Notes: a model not told the origin generated them from the sequence alone. DNA of 54,817 nt from an uncultured Eubacteriales bacterium (GCA_902475455.1 CABRZO010000001.1:1-54817), one strand, 5' to 3'; numbered from the stretch's first letter, positions 24,155 through 41,110 are shown. A program made the numbers and translations.

Positions 24155-25189
24155 ATGCTTGCCTATACTTATATCAAACAGGGGACCTTTCAACTGCAGG
24201 ACAAGCCCAAGCCCCAACCGCTGGATGACCGGGACGCCATTGTCAAGGTGACCCTGGCCAGCATCTGCACCAGCGATCTTCACATCAAGCACGGCTCCGT
24301 GCCCCGGGCGGAGCCCGGGATCACCGTGGGCCATGAGATGGTGGGCGTTGTGGACCAGGTGGGGCCGGCGGTTACCGGTCTCCAGCCCGGGGACCGGGTG
24401 ACGGTGAATGTGGAGACCTTCTGCGGCAGCTGTTTCTTCTGTCAGAACGGCTGGGTCAACAACTGCACCGACCCCAATGGGGGCTGGGCCCTGGGCTGCC
24501 GCATCGACGGCGGCCAAGCGGAATATGTCCGGGTCCCCTACGCCGACCAGGGGCTGAACAAAATTCCCAACCAGGTCTCCGACCTGCAGGCCCTGCTGGT
24601 GGGGGATGTGCTGGCCACCGGCTATTGGGCCGCTCAGATCTCCGAGATTCAGCCCCGGGACACGGTGCTCATCATCGGGGCGGGCCCCACCGGTCTGTGT
24701 ACCCTCCAGTGCGTCCGGCTTCAAACACCCCGGCGGATCATCGTCTGTGACCGAGACCCTCAGCGGCTGGACTTCGTCCACACTCACTACCCGGAGGTGC
24801 TCACCACCCCGCCGGAGGGGTTGGAGGAATATGTCCGGCAGCACAGCGACCACTGGGGCGCCGACGTGGTGCTGGAGGTGGCGGGCAGTTCCGACAGCTT
24901 CCGGATGGCCTGGCAATGCGCCCGGCCCAACGCTATTGTTACGGTGGTGGCCCTCTATGACGGGCCCCAGACGCTGCCCCTGCCGGATATGTACGGCAAA
25001 AACCTGACCTTCAAGACCGGCGGTGTGGACGGCTGCCACTGCGGAGAGATTTTAGAGCTCATCGCCCAGGGCAAACTGGACACCACCCCGCTGATCACCC
25101 ATACTTTCCCGCTGCGGGACATTCAGGTGGCCTACGACCTCTTTGAAGGCCGTCAGGACGGGGTCATCAAGGTGGCCATACAGTGCTGA
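24155..25189 (+). CDS. zinc-dependent alcohol dehydrogenase (MDR family)
   Basis: GHEMVGVV catalytic-zinc motif, structural zinc CGSCFFCQNGWVNNC, and Rossmann GAGPTGL. The ATG at 24155 has AAGGAG 8 nt upstream. The ORF track N-terminal extension was rejected. Confidence 0.9.
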   Translation: MLAYTYIKQGTFQLQDKPKPQPLDDRDAIVKVTLASICTSDLHIKHGSVPRAEPGITVGHEMVGVVDQVGPAVTGLQPGDRVTVNVETFCGSCFFCQNGWVNNCTDPNGGWALGCRIDGGQAEYVRVPYADQGLNKIPNQVSDLQALLVGDVLATGYWAAQISEIQPRDTVLIIGAGPTGLCTLQCVRLQTPRRIIVCDRDPQRLDFVHTHYPEVLTTPPEGLEEYVRQHSDHWGADVVLEVAGSSDSFRMAWQCARPNAIVTVVALYDGPQTLPLPDMYGKNLTFKTGGVDGCHCGEILELIAQGKLDTTPLITHTFPLRDIQVAYDLFEGRQDGVIKVAIQC

Positions 25190-25194
25190 CAAAA

Positions 25195-25236
25195 CAGGCT
25201 GGAGCATTCGTGTCTGACCACGATTGCTCCAGCCTG
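25195..25236 (-). terminator. terminator closing the 14-gene minus-strand operon (also faces the ADH gene)
   Basis: Long stem caggctggagca...tgctccagcctg. On the minus strand it is followed by TTTT. Confidence 0.7.
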
Positions 25237-25277
25237 TCTCATTATGATAGGGGCTAAGTCTGACCGTTCCTCAGGGC

Positions 25278-25712
25278 TTAACCTGGAAAATGACGCTTCC
25301 ACTGTTCAAAAGCCGCTTGAAAATCCTTTCGGTTTTCCTCCCGCTTTCGGGTCTCCGTGGCGAACATGCTCAACAGGAAATCCCTCTGGGCCAACCGAAT
25401 CCAGGTGCGGTAATACTCAATTTCCCCGTCCCGGGCAATCTTCCACACCACCACAATTTCTCCCGCCAATTCCTCGGAATCTTCCGTACCCCACCACCGG
25501 AACACATAGTCGATTCCAACCAGCCCCTGAAATCCCTCTCCCTGCAACAGGGAAATTGCGTCGGAGCGTTCGCTGAACGACTGCTCCCAGCAGGCTTTCC
25601 CGGAATTGGTGTTGTGCAGCCATATGTTACGCACCTCGTCCGCCAAATGGTTGGCGCACATTTGCAGCGCGCTGAAACCGTCATCTTTTTCAAATACTGT
25701 TCCCACCAGCAT
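25278..25712 (-). CDS. small hypothetical protein, last gene of the operon (possibly a small alpha+beta/NTF2-like fold)
   Basis: RBS GAGGAA 5 nt upstream of the ATG, 17 nt after the SDR stop. The fold assignment is a guess from sequence pattern only. Confidence 0.55.
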   Translation of the reverse strand: MLVGTVFEKDDGFSALQMCANHLADEVRNIWLHNTNSGKACWEQSFSERSDAISLLQGEGFQGLVGIDYVFRWWGTEDSEELAGEIVVVWKIARDGEIEYYRTWIRLAQRDFLLSMFATETRKREENRKDFQAAFEQWKRHFPG

Positions 25713-25729
25713 GGCGTTTCCTCGCTTCC

Positions 25730-26512
25730 TTAAATCACATCCATACCTTTATCCGCTGTCACTACGTTACCTGTGACGTTGCCCATAGCATCCGAACACA
25801 GGGTCAACACGATTTGAGCGACCTCTTCAGGGCGGCTGAATTTGGGCTTGGGCAACCCCGCCGGCGGCGCCATCTTTTCCCCGTTTTTCCCAAAGGAACG
25901 ATCCGCCATCCCGGTGCCCAGGGTGGGGCCGGGGCAGACCACATTGCAGCGAATGCCGAAATCCCGGTTTTCCACCGCTGCTACCTTGGTCAGCTGGATC
26001 ATCCCCGCCTTGGCGGGACCATAGGCCCCGAATCCCCCCAGGGGTTTGATGCCCGCGGTGGATGCGGTGTTGACAATGCAGCCGCTCCGCTGCTTCTGCA
26101 TTTGACGCAGTTCATACTTCATGCACAGGAAAACACCCTTCATGTCCACATCGGTAATCCAGTCCCAATCCCGCTCCGTGAATTCCGTCAGCGGCGCAAT
26201 GGGAATGGTCACCCCATCCGGGCCCACCCCGGCGTTATTGAAGGCAATGTCCACACTGCCAAAATGCTCCACCGCCGAGGCCACCATGGCCTCCACCTGG
26301 GTTTCCACTCGCACATCACACTGGATTCCTACGGCGCCCACCCCATAATCCTGCTCAATTTGCCGGGCAAGCTTCGCCGCTTTATCCATAATGGTAGAGG
26401 TGACAATGACAATGTTGGCCCCCTGCTCCGCAAATGCCAATGCCGTAGCCTTTCCGATTCCGGAGGCGCCTCCGGTGATGATGACTGTTTTGCCCTCAAA
26501 TTCCCGTTTCAT
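25730..26512 (-). CDS. short-chain dehydrogenase/reductase (SDR)
   Basis: TGGASGIGKA cofactor motif, NNAG, and the catalytic YGPAK (YxxxK). Confidence 0.9.
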   Translation of the reverse strand: MKREFEGKTVIITGGASGIGKATALAFAEQGANIVIVTSTIMDKAAKLARQIEQDYGVGAVGIQCDVRVETQVEAMVASAVEHFGSVDIAFNNAGVGPDGVTIPIAPLTEFTERDWDWITDVDMKGVFLCMKYELRQMQKQRSGCIVNTASTAGIKPLGGFGAYGPAKAGMIQLTKVAAVENRDFGIRCNVVCPGPTLGTGMADRSFGKNGEKMAPPAGLPKPKFSRPEEVAQIVLTLCSDAMGNVTGNVVTADKGMDVI

Positions 26513-26584
26513 CTGTTTCACCCTGCTTTCTATGTTCAGGTTGATTTTTACTCCAGCCCAGGAGGCCGGACGGTTTTCCGTTTC

Positions 26585-28774
26585 TTAGACGGAGGGATTA
26601 AAAAGCCAGTACGCCTTCAGCGCCGCGGTGGCGCCGTCGTAAATGGCGTGATATACCTTGGTGGGCTCCACACAGTCCCCTACCAGTTCAAAGGGGGTCG
26701 CTCCCGCCGCCGCCCGGAGTTCCTCCGTGGGATTGGATACCATGCCAAAGGCGTAAACAACCATATCTGCGTCAAAGGTGACCGGTCCATCGGGACCTTG
26801 GGCATAGACCTTTCCCTGTTCCACCCGTTCCACCCGGGTGGAGGGGAACTGCCGGATGGGATATTGCTGATACAGCCGGAACAAATCCATTTTATGGGAG
26901 TCTATGCCGCCAGGGGCCAGGGTGTCCATCATCTCCACCACCGAGACCTCTGCAGCGCCTCGGCAGGCGAAGTCAAACGCGGCCTCGCAGCCCGCCAGGC
27001 CACCGCCCAGCAAAACCACCCGCTTGCCCCGGGGGTCCATGGGATAGGCTTCCATCAGCAGGGTTGCCCACTGGGTCAGCCCGGGAACGGGCGGAACCCG
27101 CTGGGAGGAACCCACTGCGCAGATGATGAAATCCGGTGCAATCTCCCCAATCAATTCGGGGTCCACCCGGGTATTCAGCCGCACATCAATCCACCCCCGC
27201 TTGGCGATTCTGCGGATCAGGCGATCCTTAAACCGTTTCAGATCGTACTTGTGGGTGTCATAGTCGGCAAACCGGAAGATTCCGCCCAGGGCGTCGGTCT
27301 GTTCACACAAAACCACATCAAAGCCAATGTCCGCCGCAGTGATGGCCGCCTGCATACCCCCCATGCCTCCGCCGATGACCAGTATTTTCTTCATAACCCG
27401 GGTTCTGGGCAGGGAGCCGTCGGGCATCATATCCTTCCGGTCATAGTAGGGGTTGACGGAGCAGTAGTCCGGCCCCACCCCCATGGGGGGCGAATTCTCA
27501 AAGATCTCATAGAAGTTGGCGTCGGCGGGGATGGCCGGAGTAAAGGGTCCGCAAAAGACCCACTTGGGCCCCTTCCCCTCCTCCGGCGGCGCCGGGGGAC
27601 CGGGAGGAGGCGCCTCCTTCAACCCCAGGGCTTCCAGATCCCGTTTGCGCAGGGTGGGGGCCGAGCCGGCGCCACCCATGCAAATACCGCACCGGATGCA
27701 CTGGTTGATCTCGTCGGGCTGGCCGGCGGTGACCTTGTTGGGGAAGTTGGAGTCCGCCTTGTTCAGTTGGCGGCCCATGGCCACCAGATCCACCAGACCA
27801 TCGGCAATGATTTTCTCCGCGTCCCAGGGGTCCCGGATGCCCCCCACGATGCAGACGGGCACCTTGACCCGGCGCTTGATATAGGCGGCCTCCTCCAAAT
27901 TGGAAATGTTGGGCCGGTACATGCTAGGGTACATACCCGTGGCAAGGGGGCTGAAGGGACCGTCCATACAGTCGGTGGTGGGATCCCGGTAGATACCGGC
28001 GGAGACATGGATGATATCCACATAATCCTGGGCGCAGACGCAAAAATCTCCCACTTCCTCCAGGGGAATCCCCCCCTCACAGCGCTCGGACCCGGAAATC
28101 CGCATCTCCAGAATGAAATCTGAGCCCACAGCCTCCCGCACTGCCTTTAAAATCCGCAGGGGGAATCTGCGGCGATTTTCCGGACTGCCGCCGTATTCAT
28201 CCGTCCGGTGGTTGCTTCTGGGGGACAAAAACTGATGGGGCAGCCAGGAGTGGCCGAAATGCAGGTTGACGCCGTCAAATCCCGCCGCCTGCATATACTT
28301 GGCAGCGGTACACCAGCTCTGAATGGTATCGGCCATAATCTCCTCGGTCATGGCCAAAATTTCGGTGCCGTCAAAGGCCGTCATGGCCTCAGGGCCATAG
28401 CCGGGCCCCTGGCAGCCCAGACTCTTCTGGCGCAGATTGCCGGACTGGCACAGCTGCACCAGGGCCAGAGCGCCGTGGCTGTGAATCATGTCCGCGTGGC
28501 GCCGCCATTCCCGGAATTGACGGCTCTTCAGATTGGTATAATCCGTGGCGGGGGGAAAACCCGACTTGTTGCCGTAGGTAAAATTCACCTCTGTCTCGCC
28601 AATGCACACAGAGGCAGCGCCGCCGGCGGCTTTTTTCTCATAGATGCGATACTGATCCATGGGAAAGGCCCCGTCCGGCATAATCAGCCCTGCCAGCGCC
28701 GGCGAAGCCACCATGCGGTTTTTATAGGTCTTGCCCGCAATGGTGATGGGGCTCATCAGATGCTCAAAGCCCAT
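26585..28774 (-). CDS. Fe-S flavoenzyme of the 2,4-dienoyl-CoA reductase/2-enoate reductase type (OYE TIM barrel plus FAD/NAD(P) domain), with an insertion
   Basis: OYE-like half (HSHGALALVQL, HFGHSWLPHQFLSPRSNHRTDEYGGS) and Cys cluster CIRCGIC...C. Rossmann motifs VIGGGMGGMQAA and LLGGGLAGCEAA. RBS GAGGAGGG. Confidence 0.9.
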   Translation of the reverse strand: MGFEHLMSPITIAGKTYKNRMVASPALAGLIMPDGAFPMDQYRIYEKKAAGGAASVCIGETEVNFTYGNKSGFPPATDYTNLKSRQFREWRRHADMIHSHGALALVQLCQSGNLRQKSLGCQGPGYGPEAMTAFDGTEILAMTEEIMADTIQSWCTAAKYMQAAGFDGVNLHFGHSWLPHQFLSPRSNHRTDEYGGSPENRRRFPLRILKAVREAVGSDFILEMRISGSERCEGGIPLEEVGDFCVCAQDYVDIIHVSAGIYRDPTTDCMDGPFSPLATGMYPSMYRPNISNLEEAAYIKRRVKVPVCIVGGIRDPWDAEKIIADGLVDLVAMGRQLNKADSNFPNKVTAGQPDEINQCIRCGICMGGAGSAPTLRKRDLEALGLKEAPPPGPPAPPEEGKGPKWVFCGPFTPAIPADANFYEIFENSPPMGVGPDYCSVNPYYDRKDMMPDGSLPRTRVMKKILVIGGGMGGMQAAITAADIGFDVVLCEQTDALGGIFRFADYDTHKYDLKRFKDRLIRRIAKRGWIDVRLNTRVDPELIGEIAPDFIICAVGSSQRVPPVPGLTQWATLLMEAYPMDPRGKRVVLLGGGLAGCEAAFDFACRGAAEVSVVEMMDTLAPGGIDSHKMDLFRLYQQYPIRQFPSTRVERVEQGKVYAQGPDGPVTFDADMVVYAFGMVSNPTEELRAAAGATPFELVGDCVEPTKVYHAIYDGATAALKAYWLFNPSV

Positions 28775-28801
28775 AGAAAACCCTCCTCTGTGATCTCTCC
28801 A

Positions 28802-29875
28802 TTATCCCATGTCCCGATAAAACTCGTTGGTCGCCTCTACCGCCAGCGCCAAATACTTGGGGTCTGCCGGAATCTTGCGGTGGGCCACATCGTAAACGTA
28901 GGGATAGAGGAAGTCGTAGGTGGGCACGGGGACCCCCATTTCCTTGGCCTTGTCCACCACATAGCCCATGGTATGATGTCCCTCCATGGGCAACCGACGC
29001 TCCGGCACCAGCTTGCCGGCCAATTCCATGGGGTTGATGGTCCAGGCCATATCCCCCAACTCCTCCTTGCTTGGGGCGAACACACTGCTGCACCGCTCAA
29101 TCAGGGACTTCTCCTCTTCCGGGGTCTTGCAGCCGTTGACATAGCGGGGCCATTCCGAGAAGGGAATGCCGATGGCCTGCCGGGGATTGGCGCCGCAAGC
29201 CTGGGCCAGATGGTAATACTCTGTGGCGCACCGGGCAATGCAGATCTGCAAATTGCGATCCTCATAGGTTTCCAGCCCGGAGCTGTTTCTGGCGGGCATA
29301 CCCACCGCCATGCAGAGCTTTTCCCATCGGGCGGAGACAATGTCTGTGGACAGCTCCACCCGCTTGGCACAGGACAGAATCTGTTCCAGCTCCTTTAGGC
29401 GGGGGGTAATACTGCCATCCATCTCACCGATGACAAAGAAACCGTCGTGCGTGACCACCGTCCCCACCTCCGGGGTGCGGCCGCCGGCGAAACACACCAC
29501 CGGGATTACATTCTCCCGGCCCACCATGGGTACGATCACATCCTCGGGAATTCCGTTCTGGAACGAGGACCAGTAGGCGCCCGGGGCAGCGTGGGGCTTC
29601 ATTTTAGTCACAGCGTCGGCGGTAAAGTCGGCGCTGCCGGTGATCATGATGATATCAAAGAGATCCTGATCCCCCAGATCCTCCCAAAACGCCGCCTTGA
29701 CCGGGGTGGTGAATACCTGGTCATTAAACTTGACGGTAATTCCCTTCTGGGCAAACACCTCGGCAGCGGTACGGCGGAACTGAGACACCACCGTGACGTC
29801 ATGTCCCCCGTGGGACAAAAAGCCACCCACCAGATGACCAATGGTTCCGGTTCCCACTACTGCAATCTTTTTCAT
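28802..29875 (-). CDS. ketopantoate reductase (ApbA/PanE) family NAD(P)H oxidoreductase
   Basis: MKKIAVVGTGTIGHLVGG Rossmann N-terminus, FQNG, ARWEKL, and a C-terminal helical domain. RBS GAGGAGGA. The ORF track extension to 29968 was rejected. Confidence 0.8.
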   Translation of the reverse strand: MKKIAVVGTGTIGHLVGGFLSHGGHDVTVVSQFRRTAAEVFAQKGITVKFNDQVFTTPVKAAFWEDLGDQDLFDIIMITGSADFTADAVTKMKPHAAPGAYWSSFQNGIPEDVIVPMVGRENVIPVVCFAGGRTPEVGTVVTHDGFFVIGEMDGSITPRLKELEQILSCAKRVELSTDIVSARWEKLCMAVGMPARNSSGLETYEDRNLQICIARCATEYYHLAQACGANPRQAIGIPFSEWPRYVNGCKTPEEEKSLIERCSSVFAPSKEELGDMAWTINPMELAGKLVPERRLPMEGHHTMGYVVDKAKEMGVPVPTYDFLYPYVYDVAHRKIPADPKYLALAVEATNEFYRDMG

Positions 29876-29888
29876 CGCTGATTCCTCC

Positions 29889-31846
29889 TCAGTCAATCTG
29901 ATACATGGCCGCCTCCCAGCCGCTCCGGGTGGCATGTAAAATACGCCCAGCCTTGACGCAATCGCCAATCACAATGGTGTTGGGCACCAGTCCCCGCAGC
30001 GCGTCCACCGCGTCGGCACGGGGAACGACACCCATGGCCACAATGACCTGATCGCAGTCAAACTGATGCTCCGTCCCCTGGCTGTCCACCGCGGTAACCC
30101 GGTGCCCTTCAAAGCTGGTGCAGCGCAGGCCGGTACAAATCTCCACCGTGCTTTCCTGCAGCTCATGCAGCAGGGCGCCCCGGTGCATAAAGTTACAATC
30201 CACGGCCACCTCATCCCGCAGTTCAATCAGGGTGACCTGTTTGCCCTCCTGGGCCAGATGCAGCGCCGTTTCACAGCCGATGAGTCCGCCGCCGGCAATG
30301 ACAAACGTCTCACCTTGCAGCTGCCGCATCTGCTCCCAATCGGCGCCGAAGCGCACATAATCGGCGTCAATGCCGGGCAGGCCGGGTCTGAGGGGTTTGC
30401 CGCCCAGGGCCAGGATCAGGGTATCCGGCTGGATCTCCCGGACCAATTCCGGGGTAACCGGCGTATTCAGTCGCACCTCTACCCCCGCCGCCTTCAGTTG
30501 GCGGATCTTGGACTGGCAAAACAGGTTCAGCTTCCTCTTAAACTCCACCTGCTGGGCAAACTGGAGGGCTCCTCCCAAATGATCCTGGGCCTCGCACAAA
30601 ATGACCTGGTGGCCCCGATAAGCCGCGGTGATGGCGGCCTGCATGCCGCCGGGGCCGCCGCCGGCCACCAAAACCCGCCGGCTGGCCCGGGCCGGTTTCT
30701 CATAGAACCGCTCCAGCTCCCGGCCGGCGAAGGGATTGACGGCACAGCGCACCGTCCTGGTCTCCCCCATGCTGCCCTCACAGTCCAGGCAGCGCAGGCA
30801 GGGGGTGATCAGGTCCTCCCGGCCCTGGACCACCTTGCGGGGAAGATAGGGGTCGGCCACCAGTCCCCGGCCCAGGGCCACGGCATCGCAGACGCCATCC
30901 CGGATCAGCCGCTCCATAAGTTCCGGATCGTGGACGGCCCCCACCAGCACCACAGGGCACTGGACCGCCGCTTTGATCTGCCGGGCGTACTCCGCAAAGG
31001 GAGCGTCGGGGGAAAAGATGGGGGGATGCATCAGCACCGCGGAGTAAAAATCCTTTTGGGTACCGGCGGAGACGTGGAGCAGGTCCACCTTGCCGTCCAA
31101 CAGCTTGGCCATCTCCACCGCCGTATCGATGTCGTATCCGCCCTCCACCAACTCGGAGCCGCTCATACGGTACTCGATGGGAAATCCCTTTCCCACCGCC
31201 TGACGAACCCGGTCAATCACCATCAGGGGGAAGCGCATCCGGTTCTCCAGGCTGCCCCCGAATTCGTCCGTCCGGTGGTTGGACAGCGGAGAGACAAACT
31301 GGTGCAGCAGCCAGCCGTGGCCGCCGTGGATCTGCACCAGGTCAAAACCGCAGCGCTTGGCCCGTTCCGCCGCCTTGCCAAAGCAGTCGGCGATGCGTTC
31401 CATGTCCTCCACCGTCATGGAGCGGATAAAATCCCCCCATTCGTCCACGAACTCCGATGGGCCCATGGGCACGGTATGTTCCGCCAGGAATTCAGGGGCC
31501 GACAGCTCACCCCCGTGATCCAACTGCACCCCCGCCACCGCGCCTCCGGCGTGGATGGCATCGGCGGCACAGGTCAGGGAATAGACACTTCCCTCGTCAT
31601 CCATGGCCACCTGCATGGGGTGGCTTCTGCCGTCGGCTAGGTTGACGATGCAGTCGCCGATGGTGACCAGGCTGGCTCCTCCCAGCGCCCGCATCCGGTA
31701 ATAGGCGATGTTTTCCGCCGTCAGATACCCTTCCGGGGAAAGCTGGGCCTGGGAAGTGGGGCTGGACATAATCCGGTGTTTAAACGTCACATTGCCTACC
31801 TTCAGCGGAGACAACAGATTGGGAAATTTGCATCCTTCCATCTCAT
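29889..31846 (-). CDS. Fe-S flavoenzyme of the 2,4-dienoyl-CoA reductase/2-enoate reductase type
   Basis: IHGGHGWLLHQFVSPLSNHRTDEFGGS, the Cys motif CLRCLDC-x11-C, and Rossmann motifs VAGGGPGGMQAA and IAGGGLIGCETA. An alternative GTG start lies at 31850. Confidence 0.9.
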
Positions 31847-31853
31847 TCACCCT

Positions 31854-32660
31854 TTACTTGCCCCGCTCCTCCGGGTCAAACACCTGAATCACCCGATACC
31901 CGGTCCCTCTGGGCGGGATATAATGCTCCGTTTCCTCATAGCTGCGATACGCCTTGGGGCAGGAGGGCTCAAACTGCCTGAGCTGTACGGGATTGATGTC
32001 ATAATGGGTGGGGCCCGGAATCTGAATGTTTCTGGGGCTGTCCTGGCTCATCATGGGGCAGATAATCTGCCCGGTGGCCATCAGATGCCGGTATTCCTCC
32101 TGGGCGTAGTTTGTGCCGTCCAGCATCAGTGTAAATTCCTCGCCCACCATGTTGTGCAGCAGCCGCCACTCGCCGGTCTTGTCATCTCCGTCCTCAAAGA
32201 CCCAATCCTGGCCATAGCGCTCCCACATCACCATAAACATCATGTTTCCCTGGGGGGTGGAGGGCCGGCCCATCATGCCGGGGGTGACAAAGAAGGATCG
32301 GGCGCTCTTGCCGTCCTCCGCCACCTCAATGACGCTGGAGGCCAGATTGTGCACAGCGAAGCCGAAATAGTCGTCATTGTCCTCGATCTCCGGATACAGC
32401 TCCCGCATCAGGGGGAGCTCTGCGTCAGTCCCCTCATAGATGCCGGTACGCCACTCCACCTCACAGCGATCATATCCGATCAGGCAGCCAAACCCATGGG
32501 TGGCGCAGCAGTCCGGACGATGGGACCAGTTATAGGTGGAGGTATATCCAGGCCGGTCCTCAATGGCATGGTAAAACACATGGGTGGACCATTCGCACTC
32601 AATATCCAGGAAGGCCTCACAGGCGTGGATCTTTTGCTCCAAACTCAGGTCGTAATTCAT
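31854..32660 (-). CDS. NTF2/SnoaL-like protein, paralogue C (~268 aa)
   Basis: Shares ...AEDGKSARSFFVT... and ...GEWRLLHN... with paralogues A and B. Its ATG overlaps the B stop (ATGA). RBS GGGAGGG. Confidence 0.7.
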   Translation of the reverse strand: MNYDLSLEQKIHACEAFLDIECEWSTHVFYHAIEDRPGYTSTYNWSHRPDCCATHGFGCLIGYDRCEVEWRTGIYEGTDAELPLMRELYPEIEDNDDYFGFAVHNLASSVIEVAEDGKSARSFFVTPGMMGRPSTPQGNMMFMVMWERYGQDWVFEDGDDKTGEWRLLHNMVGEEFTLMLDGTNYAQEEYRHLMATGQIICPMMSQDSPRNIQIPGPTHYDINPVQLRQFEPSCPKAYRSYEETEHYIPPRGTGYRVIQVFDPEERGK

Positions 32661-33430
32661 TGACACTTCCCTCCCATCATCTCGTACAGGGATTTTACAT
32701 CTTTCTTGGCCAGCCGCCCGGCCCGGAACTTCAGACAGGCTTCCAGGCTGCAGCTCATGTCCAGGCTGTAGGAGTCGTGGGCGTCCGGAATCCGGGGGAA
32801 GGCGTACCAGCCGAACTGGGGGTTATAGGCCTCCAGCGGATAGTCGGGGGTTCCAAACTCCAACTGGGTGGGATTGACGGGATGCTCCACATCCTTTCTG
32901 GCCGCCGCGGGCCAGCCCATGACATTGACGGCGTTTTCCACCGTGAAGTCGTTGCCCTCAAAGACATGCCAGATTTTCCAATCGTCGCCCTCTTTTTTCA
33001 TGTCAAACCAGATCCGGTCATAAACATCGTAGCCCCGGGTCCCGGCCCCCATATCAATGGCCTCGCTGGCCAGACTGTAAATCAGGCAGAACGCGGTCTT
33101 GCCGTCTGCGGCAATCCGCACAATGTTGGTTCCGTTGGGCATGTGGAAGGAATAGTCCTTCTGATCTGCGGGGAAGGCCTTTTCATAGTGGGCCCGGATG
33201 CGATCCAGTCCCACATAGTAGCCCCAGTTGGCCCCCAGCTGGGCAGTGGCCTGATTTTCCGGCTGCTGTACCCAGAGGTTGTCCAGTTCACCTTGGCGAT
33301 CCTGATTGAATATGTACAGGCTCCGCCGGGCCAGCACCTGCTTGATGGACTCCCGCTCCCAGACGTTTTGAATCCGCTGCTCCGACGTGGCCTCCCGGCG
33401 ATAAAAATATCTTCCCATCATCTTGGGCAT
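32657..33430 (-). CDS. NTF2/SnoaL-like protein, paralogue B (257 aa)
   Basis: N-terminal helix WERESIKQVLARRSLYIF, plus AADGKTAFCLIYS and GDDWKIWHV. RBS GAGGAGG. Confidence 0.7.
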   Translation of the reverse strand: MPKMMGRYFYRREATSEQRIQNVWERESIKQVLARRSLYIFNQDRQGELDNLWVQQPENQATAQLGANWGYYVGLDRIRAHYEKAFPADQKDYSFHMPNGTNIVRIAADGKTAFCLIYSLASEAIDMGAGTRGYDVYDRIWFDMKKEGDDWKIWHVFEGNDFTVENAVNVMGWPAAARKDVEHPVNPTQLEFGTPDYPLEAYNPQFGWYAFPRIPDAHDSYSLDMSCSLEACLKFRAGRLAKKDVKSLYEMMGGKCQ

Positions 33431-33447
33431 AGTCTGTCAACCTCCTC

Positions 33448-34218
33448 TCAGAAATTCATACCGGCGCGTTTGTACTCCGGCATGTCGGGGCCGTAGCTGA
33501 AGGTGTCATCCCAGTCATAATAGGGCTCCGGCAGACGAATCTTTTCCTGCCGGGGGCGTCCGGGATAAAAGGCCTCATACACCTTACCCGGCTTGTTGGG
33601 CTCCGGCAGCGTCAGGCCCTCCAGCTGGGCAAACTCCGGCACCGGCTCCGGAAGCTGCCACGAATCCGCCCAGTTGACCTCCTGGGGGGCCCGGGTCTCC
33701 ACAATGCGCTGCATGTGCCAAATCCTCCAGTTGGTGCCTTCCTTGGTGAAGTCCACGGCGTAATAACCGTTTTCCTGGATGGTATAGGGGCCGTTGGCCA
33801 GAATCTCATGGATGGTGCTGTTAAACAGCCACACCCCCTTGGCTGTGGTGCCGTAGCCGGAGATCTCCAGGCAGGGGGGCGAAATGGCATCCACCTGCAT
33901 GGCGCCCACTCCGTGGAGCTTCTCCTGGGTTTTATCCCCCAGATATTCCGGGAACAGCTGCTGAATCAGCTGGGAACGCTTCTGGGTGTCCTCATATCTG
34001 GCCTTATAGTAGTTGCCCACCGCCTTCCGACCGGTGTACCATCCATCATTGGTGCCATAGCAGATATCGTCCTCAAACCGGCTCCAGAGTTCGTGCAGAA
34101 TGGTGTCCTCCTGCTTCATCTGGATGGCATAGACATACCGGCCCATGGTATTCTCAATTTCCCGCAGATCCAGAAAGGCGTCCGCCATCTGTTCCGCAGT
34201 ATAGTTCTGTTTATACAT
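33448..34218 (-). CDS. NTF2/SnoaL-like protein, paralogue A (256 aa)
   Basis: LDLREIENTMGRYVYAI, GTTAKGVWLFNS and GTNWRIWHMQRI show the SnoaL_4-like pattern. It also carries a Pro-rich C-terminal extension. Confidence 0.75.
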   Translation of the reverse strand: MYKQNYTAEQMADAFLDLREIENTMGRYVYAIQMKQEDTILHELWSRFEDDICYGTNDGWYTGRKAVGNYYKARYEDTQKRSQLIQQLFPEYLGDKTQEKLHGVGAMQVDAISPPCLEISGYGTTAKGVWLFNSTIHEILANGPYTIQENGYYAVDFTKEGTNWRIWHMQRIVETRAPQEVNWADSWQLPEPVPEFAQLEGLTLPEPNKPGKVYEAFYPGRPRQEKIRLPEPYYDWDDTFSYGPDMPEYKRAGMNF

Positions 34219-34237
34219 GCCGCTTTCCTCCTGTCAA

Positions 34238-35062
34238 TCAGCTGATGGAGACCACCTCGGACCCGGAAATAAACCGTTCTCCGTCATAGGTCATAAAGAA
34301 GTCCTCCACAATATCGGAAATGAAGATTCGCGCCCGCATCTCTTCCTTTTTGCCGGGCTTTTCATCGTTGTTGTAGTGGAAGAAATAGGAGCCCTTCCAC
34401 TTCTTTCCGTCCGAGGTCTCATACTCCACCGCGTCGGGCACGTCCGCGTAGGGCACGTCCGCCTGCTTGGGACCGGGCACAAACCAGGCCCGGGGCTTCT
34501 GGCCCACCGGACCGCCGGCGGGGCCCATTTCCTTGCCGCCACAGGCAAATTTGCCCACCATATCCACATCATAATTGCTCAGATACACCTGGAGCATCCC
34601 CAGTGTGCCGATGCACTCCCGGGTGCCGTAAAAGCCTCCGCCATAGGTGGTGAACACGATACCCAAGGGACGGTTGTTCTCCTTGCAGTAAATGCCGGGG
34701 TAAGGGGCGCCCTTCCTGCGCCAGCGGCCGCCCAGAGATTGGGTCACCGCCTCCGGGTTGACCTGTCCGCCTTCCATCTCCTTTTTCAGGTCTTCCTGAA
34801 GATTTCCGTCGCCGTTCAGGCCCATGGCGTCCGCCACCGGCTTCAGGGGCGCGCCGGCCACAATGGGGCTGCCCAGGCAGATGATGTCGTAATCGTCGAA
34901 ATAGATTTTCCCTTCCAGGGCCGCCCAGTCCATTTTTAAAGTCAGTCGCACCATCTGGACATCCCAGTTGTAATATTCAAAGGTCTCTTTAAACCAATTG
35001 GCCACTTTTTCCGTGTTCTTGGTCATGGTGGCATACAGAATCAATGCCCGTCTGCGTTTCAT
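34238..35062 (-). CDS. flavodoxin-fold protein with a C-terminal extension
   Basis: The N-terminus ALILYATMTKNTEKVA...IICLGSPIVAG is typical of a flavodoxin-like FMN site. Length 274 aa. Confidence 0.65.
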   Translation of the reverse strand: MKRRRALILYATMTKNTEKVANWFKETFEYYNWDVQMVRLTLKMDWAALEGKIYFDDYDIICLGSPIVAGAPLKPVADAMGLNGDGNLQEDLKKEMEGGQVNPEAVTQSLGGRWRRKGAPYPGIYCKENNRPLGIVFTTYGGGFYGTRECIGTLGMLQVYLSNYDVDMVGKFACGGKEMGPAGGPVGQKPRAWFVPGPKQADVPYADVPDAVEYETSDGKKWKGSYFFHYNNDEKPGKKEEMRARIFISDIVEDFFMTYDGERFISGSEVVSIS

Positions 35063-35074
35063 AATGATTCTCCT

Positions 35075-36055
35075 TTATTCCTCGTTGGGTTCGGTGGGGG
35101 CAGTCGTAGCGCCCTCCACCCGGTGGCAGGCCACCAGATGGCCCGGGCACGCCTCACGCAGCTCCGGCTCCTGGGCGAAGCACTGCTCCGTGGCGAACCG
35201 GCAGCGGGGCGCAAACCGGCAGCACTTGGGCGGATTGACCGGGGAGGTGAGCTCTCCCTGGAGCAAAATGCGCTCCGGCCGGTTCTCCAGCCGGGGAACC
35301 GGAATGGAGGACAGCAGCGCCTGGGAATAGGGGTGCAGCGTATTCCGGAACAGCTCTGCCGAGGCGCATTTCTCAACCACTTGTCCCAGGTACATCACGC
35401 AGATCTCATTGGAGATATGGCGTACCACCGACAGATCGTGTGTAATGAACAGATACGTCAGCTTTTTCTCCTCCTGCAGATCCTGCAGCAGGTTGAGCAC
35501 CTGGGCCTGAATGGAAACATCCAGCGCAGACACCGGTTCGTCACAGACAATGAACTTGGGCTCCAGAGCCAGGGCCCGGGCGATGCCGATCCGCTGCCGG
35601 CGCCCGCCGTCCAGCTCATGGGGGTAGGCCTGGGCAAACCGCTCCGCCAGTCCCACCGTGTCCATCAATTCCTTGACCCTGCGGTTGGTCTCCTCCTTGC
35701 TCTTGGTCAGTTTATAGATGGCCAGGGGCTCCGCGATCAGCTGACTGACCGACATTCTGGGGTCCAGAGAGGCAAAGGGATCCTGAAAGATCATCTGCAT
35801 CTCAGTGCGCAGATGCTTGAACTGCTTGGGTTTGATCCCGGTAATCTCTGTTCCGTTAAACCAGACCTCACCGGAGGAGGGTTCCGTCAGCCGAAGGATG
35901 CTTTTCCCCAGGGTGGATTTACCGCATCCAGACTCACCCACAATACCCATGGTCTCCCCCACGTCCACAGAAAACGAAACATCATCCACCGCGTGGAGAA
36001 CACCATCGGCAGTGGGAAAATACTTCTTCAGATGCTTTACTTCCAGCAGTTTCAT
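35075..36055 (-). CDS. Opp/Dpp-type ABC transporter ATP-binding protein (OppF-like)
   Basis: Walker [10 protein letters not shown], signature LDGGRRQRI, Walker [13 protein letters not shown], and a Cys-containing C-terminal oligopeptide-transporter domain. Its ATG overlaps the OppD-like stop (ATGA). Confidence 0.9.
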
Positions 36056-37035
36056 TCCGGTACCTCCTTGCCCGGGCCAAAGTGCAGGCACTTGACAAAA
36101 TGTCCCGGCTCCACTTCCGTCAGAATGGGATCGCAACGCTTGCACTGATCCACGCACTGCTCACACCGGTCACTGAAGCTGCACCAGGGGGGCAGATCCA
36201 TGGGGTTTGCCATCAACCCCTTGATGGGCTTCAGCCGTCTCATCTCCCGCTCCAGGTCGGGCAGGGAGTCAAAGAGCCCTTTGGTATAGGGGTGCAGCGG
36301 GTTGTGGAAGATCCGCTCGGTGGTGCCGTATTCCACAATCTCTCCGGCGTAGATCACCGCGCACTTGTCGCACATCTCCGCCACCACGCCAAAATCGTGG
36401 GTGATTAGCAGCATGGAGGTGTTGAACTGGCTGCGCAGCTGTTTCATTAGTTCCAGCACCTGGGCCTGGATGGTCACATCCAGGGCGGTGGTGGGCTCGT
36501 CGGCAATCAGCAGCGCCGGGTTGCAGGCCAGGGCAATGGCAATGACCACTCGCTGCTTCATACCGCCGGAAAACTGATGGGGGTACTCTCCGGCTCGCTG
36601 GGGAGCAATGCCCACTGTCTCCAGCATCTGCCGGGCCCGCTCCATACTCTCACTTTTAGAGCAATCCGAGTGAAGTGCAATCATCTCGGCAATCTGGTCT
36701 CCCACCGTCAGCACCGGATTTAGCGCGGTCATGGGATCCTGAAAGATCATGGAGATTCGGCCTCCCCGCAGGGCCCGAAGGGATGCGTCCTCCATTTTCA
36801 TGACATCTTCGCCCTCAAACAGGATTTCGCCGTCAATGATCTTGCCTGGGGGATTGGGGACCAGCCTCAGGATACCCAGGGCGGTGGTGGTCTTGCCCGC
36901 TCCGGTCTCTCCCACCAGTCCCAGGGTCTCTCCCTTCTCCAGGGACAGGGAGACATCGTTGACCGCCCGCACGGTGCCGGCACGGGTGACGTAATGGATG
37001 GTCAGATTTTTGATTTCTAATTCTTTCATATCCAT
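36052..37035 (-). CDS. Opp/Dpp-type ABC transporter ATP-binding protein (OppD-like)
   Basis: Walker [10 protein letters not shown], signature FSGGMKQRV, and Walker [18 protein letters not shown] overlap with the upstream permease. Confidence 0.9.
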
Positions 37036-37934
37036 TACTCCTTCAGCTTGGGATCCATGGCGTCCCGGAGGCCGTCACCGAACATATTGAATCCGAACAT
37101 GGTCAGCATAATGGCAAGGCCCGGGAAGGTGATCAGCGGATAGAATTGCCGGATAAACTCCCGGCCGGAGTTCAGCATAGACCCCCATTCCGGGGTGGGG
37201 GGCTGTACGCCCAGCCCGATGAAACTCAGGCCGGAGATCATCATAATGTTGCCTCCCAACCGCAGGGTGCAGTCTACAATGATGGGGGCCAGACAGTTGG
37301 GAATCACGTGGGACAGAATGACCCGCAGATTCCGGGAGCCGCAGGCCCGGGCGGCCTCAATATACTCCTCTCCCCGAATGCTGAGGGAGGTGGCCCGCAT
37401 CATACGACAGCTGGGGGCAATGCCGCCCACTGCCACCGCAACGGCGGTCTGCCAGATGCCGTTGCCCAGCATGGAGGAGACACAGATGGCCAGCAAGGTA
37501 CCGGGAATAGCCATCAGCATGTCCATGAAGCGCATGATGACCGTGTCTACCTTGCCTCCGAAGTAGCCGGAGACGGCGCCGATCAGGCCGCCCACCACCA
37601 CGGAGCACACCACCGCCATCAGGGAGACCAGCAACGAGATGCGGCCGCCGTAGATGATTCGGCTCAGGATGTCCCGGCCATAGTTGTCGGTGCCCAGAGG
37701 ATGGGCCAGGCAGGGATAGAGCAGGCGCTGTGTTGGGTTCTGCATGTTGATGTCATAGGGGGCGATCCAGTCTGCGAAGATGGCGCAAATGATCAACAGC
37801 AGCACGATGGCCATACCCACCATGGCCAGCTTGTTGGTCTTGAGCCGGTCCCAGATCTCCAGCAGCTGGCTGCGCTTTTTCAGGCTGCCCTGGGACAGCG
37901 TCTGGTCCTGTCTGTCTTTTGGTACGGCGGTCAT
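37035..37934 (-). CDS. Opp/Dpp-type ABC transporter permease (OppC-like)
   Basis: Six-TM permease with the EAA-loop region [24 protein letters not shown]. Confidence 0.9.
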
Positions 37935-38914
37935 GCCTTCGCCTCCTCTCCTTCGGTCTGGGTCTTTTTACGGCGCTTGCCGGCGCCGGCGAACTGAGCC
38001 TTGATCCGCGGGTCAATGGCGGCATAGGCCAGGTCCACCAGCAGGTTCATACAGCACACGAACACAGCGATGACCAGCGTAATCCCCATGATCGTGGGAT
38101 AGTCCCGATTGTTGATACCGGTCACCATCAGGGAGCCGATGCCGGGAATATTGAAAATACTCTCGATGATGACGTTTCCGCCGATGACCATGGAAATCTG
38201 TCCGCCGATCATGGTAATCACCGGAATTAGCGCATTTTTCAGGGCGTGCTTACGGATGATGGCCATCTCCCGCAGGCCCTTGGCCCGGGCAGTGCGGATA
38301 TAGTCCTGACGGATGACCTCCAGCAGACTGGAGCGGGTCATGCGGGTGGTACCGGCCAGACTCATCATGCCGCTGGCCGCCACCGGCAAAACATAATGCA
38401 GCGGCGTACTCAGTCCGCTGGCTGGCAGCAGGTTCAGCTTGATGCTGAACACCACAATGCCCATCAGTGCCAGCCAAAACCCCGGAATGGAGGCCAGCAC
38501 CACCGCCAGAATGGACACGGTATAGTCCAGGGCAGTCTTCTGTTTGATGGCGGAGATAATGCCGAAGGGGATGCCCAGCACCACGGTGACGCAGACGCTG
38601 AGGACACCCAGCTGGATGGTTACCCCAACCCGTTCAGCGATGGTGGCGGATACCGCCCGGTTGGTCATATAGGAGGTGCCCAGATCCAGCCTGGTCACCA
38701 CCCCCCAGATGTACTGGCCCAGCTGAATCAGATAGGGCTGATCCAGACCCATCTCATGTTCCACCTGATCGTACTGTTCCTGGGTATAGTTGTCCGGCAG
38801 CTGGTTGAGCACCGGATCGCCCGGCATCAGATAGCTGAGCGAAAAGACAATAATCAGCACGCCCAACAGCACCGGAATCATCTGCAGCAGGCGCTTGATG
38901 ATGTATTTGATCAT
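37931..38914 (-). CDS. Opp/Dpp-type ABC transporter permease (OppB-like)
   Basis: MIKYIIKRLLQMIPVLLGV N-terminus and EAA loop DYIRTARAKGLREMAIIRKHALKN. RBS AAAGGAGAG. The ORF track extension to 38986 was rejected. Confidence 0.9.
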   Translation of the reverse strand: MIKYIIKRLLQMIPVLLGVLIIVFSLSYLMPGDPVLNQLPDNYTQEQYDQVEHEMGLDQPYLIQLGQYIWGVVTRLDLGTSYMTNRAVSATIAERVGVTIQLGVLSVCVTVVLGIPFGIISAIKQKTALDYTVSILAVVLASIPGFWLALMGIVVFSIKLNLLPASGLSTPLHYVLPVAASGMMSLAGTTRMTRSSLLEVIRQDYIRTARAKGLREMAIIRKHALKNALIPVITMIGGQISMVIGGNVIIESIFNIPGIGSLMVTGINNRDYPTIMGITLVIAVFVCCMNLLVDLAYAAIDPRIKAQFAGAGKRRKKTQTEGEEAKA

Positions 38915-39000
38915 AGACTTTCTCTCCTTTTCGCGGTTCGCCGCCCCCCTCCCCCGCCCGGGGACCGGGGAGGGGGCGGCTGCCATGCGCCGGAATGGGA

Positions 39001-40626
39001 TCAGCCCACTACGGTAATGTCCCGCAGAGAGGGAGAACCGGTGATGGGAATGTCACAGGTGCCGATCCGGCTGTTGTAGGCGTAGGCGGTGCTCCACTGG
39101 CCCACCGGGATCATGCTGTAGTGATCGTAGAAGTAATCCTGCACATCACTGTAAATCTGGGCCCGCTCCGCATCGTCAGTGGTGCTGCGGCCCGCCTCCA
39201 GCAGATCCACAATTTCGGGATCAGTCTGAGCAGTGCACTGGTAGGAGAAGTTGCCCCGGAAGAAGGTATACACGTCCGCTGCCTCATTGGTGGCGGTGGC
39301 GATGGCAGCACCGTTGATAAACAGGTCGGTGCCGTTGGGCTGGGACCAGTAGTCGGCCACGGCGGTGGACTGATCGTAGGTCTCAATCTCCACATTGACG
39401 CCGATCTCCTGCATGTAGTACTGGAAGGACTCGGCAATGGTGGTGGAGGTGGTAGCCGTATTGGTCACGAAGGTCAGGGTTGGGTTGTCAATGCCGCATT
39501 CCGCCACCAGCTGCTTGGCTGTCTCCGGGTCATACTCGTAGGAATGGCCGTCCACATAGTAGGGGTTGGACTCGTTCAGGGTTGAGGTGGAGGGGGTGGC
39601 CAGAATGCCCCAGGTCAGGTCGGCGATGGCCGCAGCATCGGTGCCGATGCAAATAGCCTCGCGGAGCTTTTCATTCTGCAGATCCTGGTTCTGGGGACTC
39701 AGCACAATCACCGCCGAGGCGTTGGAGCTGACGGGGACATAGGTGCCCATGCTGGGATCGGCGGAGATCTCTTCACAGTCGTTGGCAGTGAGGTTGATAG
39801 CCACGTCGATGACCCCGTTGATGTAGTCGGCCATCATGGTGGTGTTGTCGGTATACCGATAGCAGGTGATCTCCTGGACCGAGGCGGAGTCGCCGGCCTC
39901 GTCGGCCATCCACCAGTCGTCCCGCTTTTCAAATGTGATGGACACGTCGGTAATGCTCTCCTTCACCGTATAGGGGCCGGAGCCGCACACCGAATCCTTG
40001 GAGAACCAGTCGGCGTTCTCCCCCAGAGCTTCCACAAAGTCCTTGTTCATTACAAAGATATTGAGGCCGGACTGCCAGGGGCCGTAGGGCTGATTGTACT
40101 GGAGGTACAGGGTCATGCCATCCTCGGAAACAGAGCTGGCGTCAAAGTCCACCACGGTGAAGTTGGTGCCGCCCCGGGAGGACTGGGCAAAGCGCTGCAT
40201 GGAGTAGAGCACATCCTCCATGGTCATCTGATCCCCGTTGGAGAAATAGATACCGTCCTTCAGCTCCAGAACCAGCTGATTTTCCACCTCCTCGGACCAG
40301 TAGTAGTCGCTGAGAATGTCGGAATACCACTGGCCGTCGGAGCCGATGCTGAACAACTGGTCATAGAGCAGGTAGGTGGCCGCGGTGGAGCACTCGGTGC
40401 TGAAGTACTGGCTGGCATCAAAATGGCCCAGGAACTGCTGGGCCGTGGAGCCCACTGCAATGGCGGCATCGGTCTGAACTGTCTGGGCCGAACTGCCGGC
40501 GGAGCCGCTGGTGGTGGAGGTACCGGAGGCAGAGGTACTGCCGTTGCCGCAGGCCGCCAGCCCGAATACCATGGACGCCGCCAGGGCCAGCCCGGCCAGC
40601 CGTCTGAAGATACCGTGTTGTTTCAT
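39001..40626 (-). CDS. ABC transporter substrate-binding lipoprotein, family 5 (peptide/nickel/opine type)
   Basis: Signal peptide with the lipobox LAAC, a Ser/Thr/Gly linker, and 541 aa typical of family-5 binding proteins. RBS AGAGGAGGAA. Confidence 0.88.
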   Translation of the reverse strand: MKQHGIFRRLAGLALAASMVFGLAACGNGSTSASGTSTTSGSAGSSAQTVQTDAAIAVGSTAQQFLGHFDASQYFSTECSTAATYLLYDQLFSIGSDGQWYSDILSDYYWSEEVENQLVLELKDGIYFSNGDQMTMEDVLYSMQRFAQSSRGGTNFTVVDFDASSVSEDGMTLYLQYNQPYGPWQSGLNIFVMNKDFVEALGENADWFSKDSVCGSGPYTVKESITDVSITFEKRDDWWMADEAGDSASVQEITCYRYTDNTTMMADYINGVIDVAINLTANDCEEISADPSMGTYVPVSSNASAVIVLSPQNQDLQNEKLREAICIGTDAAAIADLTWGILATPSTSTLNESNPYYVDGHSYEYDPETAKQLVAECGIDNPTLTFVTNTATTSTTIAESFQYYMQEIGVNVEIETYDQSTAVADYWSQPNGTDLFINGAAIATATNEAADVYTFFRGNFSYQCTAQTDPEIVDLLEAGRSTTDDAERAQIYSDVQDYFYDHYSMIPVGQWSTAYAYNSRIGTCDIPITGSPSLRDITVVG

Positions 40627-40766: not shown

Positions 40767-40795
40767 AGTATAAAAACCTCGGCCGTCAAATGCAA
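40767..40795 (-). promoter_or_regulatory. candidate operon promoter (TTGCAT-17-TATACT)
   Basis: Minus-strand -35 at 40790-40795 and -10 at 40767-40772. This implies a GC-rich leader of about 130 nt before the binding-protein gene. Confidence 0.45.
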
Positions 40796-41059: not shown

Positions 41060-41110
41060 AATTACAATCGAATTTTGGCGAAAAAGCTGCGCTGGAGGCG
41101 AGATTCCCCC

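Follow-up and report, generated by a model that had tools for sequence, protein, structure and literature searches.

What chemistry is encoded by an operon that joins a small-molecule importer to a set of reductive enzymes and to three related proteins of the NTF2 fold? The question is raised by positions 25278-40626 (minus strand) of a 54,817-nucleotide stretch of DNA from an uncultured Eubacteriales bacterium (GCA_902475455.1, CABRZO010000001.1:1-54817), which we refer to as the window and whose host is probably a member of the Oscillospiraceae. An initial annotation, made from the sequence alone, had likened the 14 genes of this locus to the bile-acid 7-alpha-dehydroxylation (bai) operon and to equol clusters. 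Our analysis suggests that the arrangement of the 14 genes is of less interest than a trio of NTF2-like paralogues within it, here called A, B and C, the recurrence of this trio, and a wider family of cassettes that combine a 274-amino-acid flavodoxin-like protein (Fld274) with an old yellow enzyme (OYE)-type reductase. What is new here is a set of three NTF2 paralogues in fixed order, which probably make up a heterotrimeric lyase or dehydratase and which recur as a module in many Oscillospiraceae cassettes; a literature search returned no account of this trio, of Fld274 or of cassettes of this kind. We read the locus as an inducible catabolic or electron-sink operon in which the heterotrimer would feed ene-reductases, the net outcome being a reductive elimination, and we assign to this reading a probability of roughly 0.5.

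The three proteins are encoded side by side on the minus strand: A (256 amino acids, 33448-34218), B (257 amino acids, 32657-33430) and C (268-270 amino acids, 31854-32660), the last being the putative catalytic member. They are 22-23% identical to one another and are homologous over their full length according to hhalign, with a probability of 99.5-100%, and all three share a C-terminal extension, or arm, of about 90 residues that ends in PxPY.T..SYG. SnoaL_4 is above the Pfam cutoff in B only (32.6 bits), none of the three matches an NCBIfam model at E ≤ 0.01, and the only names given to such proteins in databases are 'hypothetical protein' and 'nuclear transport factor 2 family protein'. 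The assignment of A rests on hhalign, on residue frequencies and on natural fusions of A to B, and that of C on a profile match to the lyase LdpA and on its invariant residues.

How widespread is this arrangement? The B-type protein is rare: 65 relatives were retrieved by a word-indexed search among 5.8 billion proteins, and when a B-type profile was run with HMMER against all of 1.84 billion cluster representatives (clusters at 50% identity), 1,121 of these matched at E ≤ 1e-3 and 134 at E ≤ 1e-30. A pattern was then scanned against 185,579 species, each represented by one genome, and matched 210 stretches, of which 80 were kept. Nearly all of the 80 belong to metagenome-assembled genomes (MAGs) of uncultured Oscillospiraceae or Clostridia from the human gut (including that of the Hadza), the rumen and deer; none comes from a cultured isolate, and several genomes are represented by three or four loci. 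Our statements on loci rest on 79 fetched genome loci, to which the 14 window proteins were mapped by tblastn; homology-guided calling of open reading frames (ORFs) recovered 75 complete trios in 70 of 88 sequences. In every untruncated locus the order A-B-C is fixed, with A directly upstream and C directly downstream of B on the same strand. The trio recurs about 100 times in the fetched loci, beside varied transporters and reductases, and ten loci hold two or three trios according to the tblastn map. The commonest spacing is -4 nt at both the A/B and the B/C junction (26 of 75 trios at each). Natural A-B fusions of 476-528 amino acids (P0135-P0138 and P0153), in which the domain order equals the gene order, span at least five clusters that are less than 50% identical to one another. 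The initial annotation had thus correctly described the three proteins as long and paralogous, while missing that they constitute an invariant, ordered module. The invariant order, the ATGA overlaps that give the -4 nt spacing, the common arm and the A-B fusions led us to propose that A, B and C probably form a physical complex, most simply a pseudo-symmetric heterotrimer.

Two further observations concern the occurrence of these proteins. More distant two-domain NTF2 fusions were found as P0209, P0217, P0261, P0270 and P0274. Moreover, the bins from which some trio loci derive carry the labels Bacteroides sp. CAG:927, Barnesiella, Bacteroidaceae or Flexilinea (L014, L022, L048, L049, L066, L067, L070, L075, L077 and L082); these labels are probably binning or naming errors, since the layout of the loci matches that of the Oscillospiraceae loci.

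By fold as well as by profile, the nearest characterised relative of the trio is LdpA, and not BaiE or BaiI. LdpA is the erythro-1,2-diguaiacylpropane-1,3-diol (erythro-DGPD) gamma-formaldehyde lyase of Novosphingobium/Sphingobium (PDB 8abt, 8abu and 8abv), a protein of NTF2/SnoaL_4 fold with about 240 amino acids and a long C-terminal arm. An AlphaFold2 model of B with a predicted local distance difference test (pLDDT) score of 84.7 gave LdpA as the top Foldseek match, aligned over about 237 columns of 236-240 residues, i.e. over its full length, at a template modelling (TM) score of 0.52-0.59. Searches of the PDB with the single sequences of B and of Fld274 returned nothing useful and family profiles were needed; with these, LdpA was matched by B at E 2.4e-5 and by C at E 1.3e-4, and no other PDB match was significant. 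Identity between LdpA and the trio proteins is 14-17%. The matches that follow LdpA for the B model are BaiE, LinA and scytalone-dehydratase-like proteins, all limited to a core of about 150 residues, with BaiE matching at the level of fold only (11-16% identity).

LdpA is a cofactor-free homotrimer that is stabilised by its extended C-terminal arm; His97 and Glu143 act as an acid/base pair, Tyr35 and Tyr147 form an oxyanion hole, and the reaction runs via a quinone methide to a stilbene (PMC9942872). Scytalone dehydratase, LinA and BaiE have the same fold as the trio and a general-base histidine at the same position of the sheet (PMC9942872), but they are homo-oligomers of subunits of about 150-170 amino acids without the long arm, and where they have an Asp/Tyr pair in helix 1, C has His29 and His33, B has Arg and A has Tyr or Phe (helix 1 could not be aligned to LdpA itself). 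LdpA, too, is encoded by one gene, whereas here there are three paralogues in fixed order, only one of which looks catalytic, and its partners are stilbene dioxygenases, whereas here they are ene-reductases in anaerobic Clostridia of gut and rumen. By analogy with LdpA, the trio may likewise perform cofactor-free acid/base chemistry that yields a conjugated alkene.

Which subunit would carry the active site is suggested by the pattern of conservation. In the HMMER alignment, His106, Glu149 and Tyr151 of C correspond to His97, Glu143 and Tyr147 of LdpA. Eight residues are 100% invariant in the C family (H29, H33, H106, E114, D118, E149, R150 and Y151), and His57 is nearly so (95%, otherwise Tyr). 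At the position of the catalytic histidine, 80% of the B family have His and A has Lys, Arg or Asp; the Tyr147 position is aliphatic in B and mostly Phe in A. Invariant equivalents of these three LdpA residues are hence found in C only, and from this pattern we regard C as the putative catalytic subunit and A and B as specialised partners. It could be argued that none of the three is an enzyme and that they serve as ligand-binding, scaffolding or regulatory subunits, e.g. as carriers or specificity factors for the OYE enzymes or the importer, given that many NTF2-like proteins are non-catalytic, that A and B are devoid of the catalytic residues and that the trio is found with several classes of reductase. 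We consider this quite improbable, as C displays a dense invariant polar set (four His, three Glu/Asp, Arg and Tyr) that includes the three LdpA equivalents, and as trios accompanied by transporters only, without any reductase, also occur.

The NTF2 fold also includes ketosteroid isomerase (KSI) and BaiI. The trio might accordingly be a KSI-like double-bond isomerase that turns a beta,gamma-unsaturated compound into its conjugated isomer (delta-5 to delta-4 in a 3-oxo steroid or sterol, for example) for reduction by OYE, with the short-chain dehydrogenase/reductase (SDR) and the ketopantoate reductase (KPR)-fold enzyme of the operon acting as hydroxysteroid dehydrogenases. The presence of an SDR and two Fe-S OYE enzymes of BaiCD/BaiH type (345-424 bits on the BaiCD model) and the occurrence in gut Oscillospiraceae would agree with such a role. 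However, both fold and profile place the trio closest to LdpA and the dehydratase/dehydrochlorinase clade rather than to KSI, the invariant His, Glu and Tyr of C match the catalytic set of LdpA, a family-5 ABC (ATP-binding cassette) importer, or the GntP permease of other cassettes, is ill-suited to neutral sterols, and the BaiCD cutoff is missed. An isomerase is therefore distinctly unlikely in our view.

If the trio eliminates, what consumes the product? Among the 70 trio loci, the neighbour most often found within six genes is an Fe-S OYE reductase (25 loci), followed by Opp-type ATPases (24) and permeases (21), a LysR regulator (19), a family-5 binding protein (13), a 594-amino-acid lipoprotein (12), a FAD_binding_2 protein (8), an SDR (7) and an AraC regulator (7). 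Seldom near trios are flavodoxin-like proteins (5), KPR-fold enzymes (3) and homologues of the 144-amino-acid protein that ends the operon (about 3). The Fe-S OYE gene directly adjoins the trio on the same strand 22 times. Hence it is the trio on which selection acts, as a rule together with an importer and a regulator of its own and in many cases with an Fe-S OYE enzyme. A variant cassette with the order LysR-SDR-Dabb-single SnoaL_4 (about 241 amino acids)-Fe-S OYE-A-B-C was seen in L006, L020, L022, L031, L032, L039 and L040; in this variant a single additional NTF2-like protein, the fourth, is encoded ahead of the reductase.

A second line of evidence comes from Fld274 (34238-35062, minus strand), which precedes A in the operon. 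Only its N-terminal 60-75 residues resemble a flavodoxin, and weakly so (NCBIfam E 2e-5, 24.7 bits where the cutoff is 127; matches of the family profile to PDB flavodoxins at E 2e-4 to 0.07); this stretch contains a conserved phosphate-loop-like motif, YATMTKNTEK. The earlier label of a flavodoxin-fold protein is thus borne out by a weak match at the N-terminus. More than 281 homologues at 47-73% identity were found in MAGs of Oscillospiraceae, Clostridiales Family XIII, Synergistaceae and Eubacterium, none with a Pfam domain or an informative name. When 81 loci around members of this family were compared, the neighbours that recurred were a LysR gene in divergent orientation, an importer of Opp type and an Fe-S OYE reductase. 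The remaining slot is occupied by the NTF2 trio in L100, L114 and L148, and more often by hot-dog FAS1_DH_region dehydratase-like proteins of 420-470 amino acids that score above the Pfam cutoff (L096, L097, L105, L107, L117, L125, L129, L138, L141, L152, L159 and L160; located, e.g., at L096 9864-11270 and L097 1030-2295). The wider Fld274/OYE cassette family thus has interchangeable dehydratase-type modules. That a protein of dehydratase fold occupies the slot of the trio, flanked by the same kinds of reductase and accessory gene, is the best evidence that genomic context offers here; it suggests, by analogy, that the trio provides the ene-reductase with a step of hydratase/dehydratase or lyase type. 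In L097 a second flavodoxin-like protein (325 amino acids) and a conserved 135-amino-acid partner were also noted. We regard Fld274 as a candidate electron carrier for the OYE reductases, as far as its sequence allows.

Several observations weigh against a lyase or dehydratase coupled to ene-reduction. MAFFT and HMMER differ by two residues in the alignment at Glu143. Asp40 and Tyr35 of LdpA remain unaligned and C instead has the invariant His29 and His33 in that helix, so that its chemistry may differ from that of LdpA and metal binding is possible. The AlphaFold2 model of C, built from 11 homologues, has a pLDDT of 39 and therefore gives no pocket geometry. Many trios, e.g. those of L003-L005, have no OYE gene within 10 kb, and some lie near molybdopterin oxidoreductases or nitroreductase-Fer4 proteins instead, which indicates that coupling to ene-reduction is frequent and not obligatory. 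Finally, hot-dog FAS1_DH_region proteins usually act on thioesters, and the replacement argument is an analogy only.

The trios without a nearby OYE gene also bear on the possibility that the module catalyses some other reaction of the NTF2 type, such as phenolic-acid decarboxylation, epoxide hydrolysis, ring opening or cyclisation, with the reductases acting upstream or in a separate branch. A fungal gallate decarboxylase is among the fold matches (ranks 32-48), the GntP/CitMHS permeases of some cassettes suggest carboxylate substrates, and Arg150 is invariant in C. Yet LdpA outscores the decarboxylase by fold and is the sole significant profile match (E 1e-4 to 1e-5), the OYE gene adjoins the trio in the 22 instances mentioned above, and dehydratase-like hot-dog proteins replace the trio in related cassettes. 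Such alternative activities are, we believe, unlikely, and elimination followed by reduction remains our preferred interpretation.

The operon encodes two candidate reductases of this kind, and the window a third. OYE653 (650-653 amino acids, 29889-31841, minus strand), which follows C, is of the type commonest beside trios and has 6qkg, 'NCR A', as top PDB match; OYE729 (729 amino acids, 26585-28774, minus strand) has orthologues at 67-75% identity in L001, L009, L010 and L100. Both consist of Oxidored_FMN and Pyr_redox_2 domains and carry the CxxCxxC...C cluster motif, as does a third copy upstream of the operon (43650-45728, minus strand), and all three belong to the Fe-S OYE/2,4-dienoyl-CoA reductase class by these domains and the [4Fe-4S] cysteine motif (CoA, coenzyme A). 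In OYE729, a Pro/Gly-rich insertion of about 65 amino acids at residues ~365-440 separates the third and fourth cysteines of the motif; it is absent from OYE653 and from the third OYE enzyme. The barrel, the cluster motif and the Pyr_redox_2 domain are shared with FadH, 2-naphthoyl-CoA reductase and the enoate, flavone and bilirubin reductases of gut bacteria; the operon enzymes differ in that no equivalog cutoff is reached, in the cluster-loop insertion of OYE729 and in that the operon has no CoA-activating enzyme.

Could the locus then be a divergent copy of a characterised pathway, be it bai 7-alpha-dehydroxylation, bilirubin reduction, equol formation or flavone reduction? The top NCBIfam models for both OYE proteins are indeed BaiCD, mycofactocin OYE_2 and BilR-long. 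None reaches its cutoff: the BaiCD model NF041087 gives 423.7 and 344.8 bits against 825, the BilR-long model NF045599 405.5 and 277.5 bits against 750, and another top OYE model 422 against 793. With scores at about half of the curated cutoffs, identity as a bai, BilR or mycofactocin OYE enzyme was rejected. In addition, A, B and C match no NCBIfam model, the 14 products contain no CoA ligase or transferase domain, and no homologue bears an informative name in databases; we find a copy of a known pathway hardly credible. The statement of the initial annotation that the locus matches no characterised pathway is thereby upheld.

The published bil operon consists of an OYE-type reductase, a flavodoxin-like protein and a dedicated regulator, a likeness to the present locus that deserves mention; the BilR/BilS locus, however, has neither an NTF2 trio nor an ABC importer, and Fld274 is a distinct family of 274 amino acids without a Pfam domain. 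The resemblance to bai is broader, comprising oxidation by an SDR, an NTF2-fold dehydratase, Fe-S OYE-type reductases and a transporter within one operon, and to this extent the combination of NTF2 enzyme, Fe-S OYE and dehydrogenase first suggested is sustained by the confirmed domains. The bai operon, in contrast, has the CoA chemistry of BaiB/BaiF and a BaiG-type carrier, where here an ABC importer is found and AMP-binding or CoA-transferase domains are missing from the 14 products (as had been claimed) and from the immediate flanking genes; and BaiE and BaiI are short (about 170 amino acids), where the NTF2 proteins here measure 256-270 amino acids and are nearer to LdpA. In summary, the locus resembles both the trimeric NTF2 dehydratase/lyase clade and bai-type reductive dehydroxylation, and is a member of neither.

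Three further products follow among and behind the OYE enzymes, all on the minus strand. Between OYE653 and OYE729 lies an NAD(P)H oxidoreductase of ketopantoate-reductase fold (28802-29875; ApbA and ApbA_C); identity as PanE was rejected, as all PanE equivalogs are below cutoff (TIGR00745, 91.6 against 141.35). A classical SDR oxidoreductase (25730-26521; adh_short_C2, E 2.4e-55) is followed by the 144-amino-acid protein (25278-25712), which matches no Pfam or NCBIfam family and is accessory, outside the conserved core. Homologues of the latter at 41-45% identity exist in L033 and L042, where they adjoin bis-molybdopterin guanine dinucleotide (bis-MGD) oxidoreductases of 680-722 amino acids (L033 7731-11519; L042 13947-17074); in L033 a nitroreductase-Fer4 protein is also encoded a few genes from the trio. 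The trio may thus pair also with reductases other than OYE.

Upstream of Fld274, the first five genes encode the importer, all on the minus strand: a family-5 solute-binding lipoprotein (39001-40626; SBP_bac_5, E 2.6e-49), whose translation shows an N-terminal signal with an AACG lipobox-like cysteine, an OppB/DppB-type permease (37931-38914; BPD_transp_1_N and BPD_transp_1; likely start ATG 38914), an OppC/DppC-type permease (37035-37934; OppC_N and BPD_transp_1), and ABC ATPases of OppD type (36052-37035) and OppF type (35075-36055), both with ABC_tran and oligo_HPY domains. With a SBP_bac_5 protein, two BPD_transp_1 permeases (one with OppC_N) and two oligo_HPY ATPases, the set conforms to an Opp/Dpp (PepT) importer. 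The nearest PDB relatives of the binding protein include the non-peptide binders AccA, GsiB/YliB, NikA and AgaA; as these relatives bind agrocinopine, glutathione, nickel chelates and agropinic acid, it is plausible that the ligand here is not a peptide.

The importer also illustrates how the operon appears to have been composed. The initial annotation had treated the 14 genes as a unit; most of the set is common only to the four close relatives L001, L009, L010 and L100 (65-77% identity), in which the block ATPases-Fld274-A-B-C-OYE729 recurs together with an OYE653-like gene. Compared with these relatives, the enzymes are 65-77% and the ATPases 66-76% identical, the permeases only 41-45% and the binding protein 21-23%. 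Such divergent binding protein and permeases beside clearly orthologous ATPases and enzymes suggest a mosaic importer whose substrate-recognition half was swapped. The 3' ends of the four relatives differ from the window as well: their KPR-like gene is weakly related (36-37%) and no match to the SDR or the 144-amino-acid protein was found in them. L001 and L002 have a small ferredoxin and a FAD_binding_2 gene after the KPR-like gene, and a further OYE-type gene after OYE729. On these comparisons the 14-gene set is one mosaic instance and not a conserved unit.

One might go further and regard the 14 genes as a chance juxtaposition of an importer, a trio and assorted oxidoreductases, for which the lack of conservation of the 3' half (KPR-fold enzyme, SDR and 144-amino-acid protein) and the swapped-in look of the binding protein and permeases could be cited. 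The recurrence of the central block in the four relatives and the structure of the operon itself make this very unlikely. Fourteen consecutive minus-strand ORFs were confirmed, and Pfam and NCBIfam searches bear out nearly all domains, and the gene order, that had been named before. The tight packing described in the initial annotation is likewise real: ATGA overlaps join the two permease genes, the two ATPase genes and B to C, one TAATG overlap joins the OppC-type permease gene to the first ATPase gene, and the remaining gaps measure 10-27 nt, apart from 63 nt between OYE729 and the SDR gene and 86 nt between the binding-protein gene and the first permease gene. The latter value presumes that the permease starts at ATG 38914, which has a AAGGAGAG ribosome-binding site; a GGAGG-like motif precedes the start codon at most junctions inspected. 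Promoter-like and terminator-like matches inside the operon are no commoner than in shuffled sequence, and a single strong terminator closes it, an intrinsic-terminator-like hairpin at 25194-25238 (minus strand; -39.4 kcal/mol, followed by TTTTG), which agrees with the one previously placed at 25195-25236. The close spacing of the genes, their ribosome-binding sites, the single terminator and internal signals that stay at background level show that the 14 genes form a real operon.

Endogenous control of this operon probably depends on an activator. A candidate promoter, TTGCAT-17 nt-TATACT, was read upstream of the binding-protein gene (40767-40795, minus strand); it has a good -10 and a poor -35 element and failed a consensus promoter scan, so that the promoter proposed earlier is present as a candidate and is weaker than was implied. 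A weak -35 element next to a divergent gene for an AraC-type regulator (585 amino acids with a C-terminal HTH_18 domain by Pfam; 40922-42679, plus strand) would fit an activator-dependent promoter, and we regard this regulator as the candidate activator. The 86-nt spacer between the binding-protein and permease genes (38915-39000, minus strand) folds into a GC-rich hairpin without a T-run (-47.9 kcal/mol, z-score -1.97), which may stabilise the mRNA or attenuate transcription and thereby raise the expression of the binding protein relative to the permeases.

Taken together, we propose the following sequence of events. The Opp/Dpp-type ABC importer would take up a small molecule, probably not a peptide. 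A, B and C would assemble as a heterotrimer, a subunit-specialised version of the homotrimeric LdpA, BaiE, LinA and scytalone dehydratase, with the active site in C (His106, Glu149, Tyr151 and further invariant histidines) and with A and B as scaffold or substrate-shaping subunits. Optionally, the SDR or the KPR-fold enzyme could first oxidise a hydroxyl to a ketone and thus activate the leaving group. The heterotrimer would then carry out a cofactor-free acid/base elimination, either a dehydration or an LdpA-like C-O/C-C lyase step, giving a conjugated alkene, an enone or a quinone methide. This product would be reduced by the two Fe-S OYE-type flavoenzymes, with electrons from NAD(P)H passing through their own FAD/NAD domain and with Fld274 possibly serving them as a low-potential electron carrier, and in a last step the SDR or KPR-fold enzyme would re-reduce the ketone and restore the hydroxyl. 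Overall, the substrate would be dehydroxylated or cleaved reductively. This scheme, which amounts to the oxidation-elimination-reduction logic of bai without its CoA chemistry and is close to what the initial annotation proposed, we hold to be an even bet.

As to the substrate, the range of hosts (herbivore and high-fibre guts), the LdpA-like residues for a phenolate and a leaving group and the GntP-type permeases of sister cassettes incline us towards hydroxylated plant-derived phenolic or alicyclic acids rather than steroids, a guess that we make tentatively and that is doubtful. More specific still, and a long shot, is the idea that an obligate heterotrimeric, cofactor-free lyase, in which one subunit is catalytic and two are degenerate, strips a benzylic hydroxyl, an ether or a C1 unit from lignin-type, lignan-type or other phenolics via quinone-methide chemistry, the product being reduced by Fe-S OYE enzymes and elsewhere by molybdenum enzymes.

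The surroundings of the operon resemble an ordinary chromosome, with a GC content that is uniform over the window. Upstream of the operon, besides the third OYE gene, lies a 5'-nucleotidase_C-like ORF (42583-43509, plus strand). On the other side, a convergent gene for a zinc-type alcohol dehydrogenase (23900-25189, plus strand) ends near the terminator hairpin and may share it. Further away are genes for TelA (2265-3482, minus strand), a chromate transporter (7371-8789, plus strand), an ABC exporter (9792-11405, minus strand), dnaX (11882-13588, minus strand), a MatE transporter (15582-16982, plus strand) and adhE (18494-21115, plus strand).

Uncultured Oscillospiraceae are abundant in the guts of humans, including non-industrialised populations, and of ruminants, and their small-molecule chemistry is largely unknown. 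The locus exposes a compact, recurrent enzyme module that is almost confined to this family. Each copy is accompanied by an importer and a regulator of its own, as one would expect of cassettes dedicated to particular substrates. Should the trio prove to be a heterotrimeric lyase or dehydratase, it would, to our knowledge, be without precedent as a subunit-specialised enzyme in the trimeric NTF2 clade, and it would provide an experimental handle on reductive transformations of dietary or host compounds that are without assigned genes. Should the reading in terms of lignin- or lignan-type substrates prove true, the module would represent an anaerobic counterpart of the aerobic LdpA route, and the many substrate-specific cassettes would make the Oscillospiraceae of gut and rumen major, hitherto unrecognised transformers of plant aromatics.

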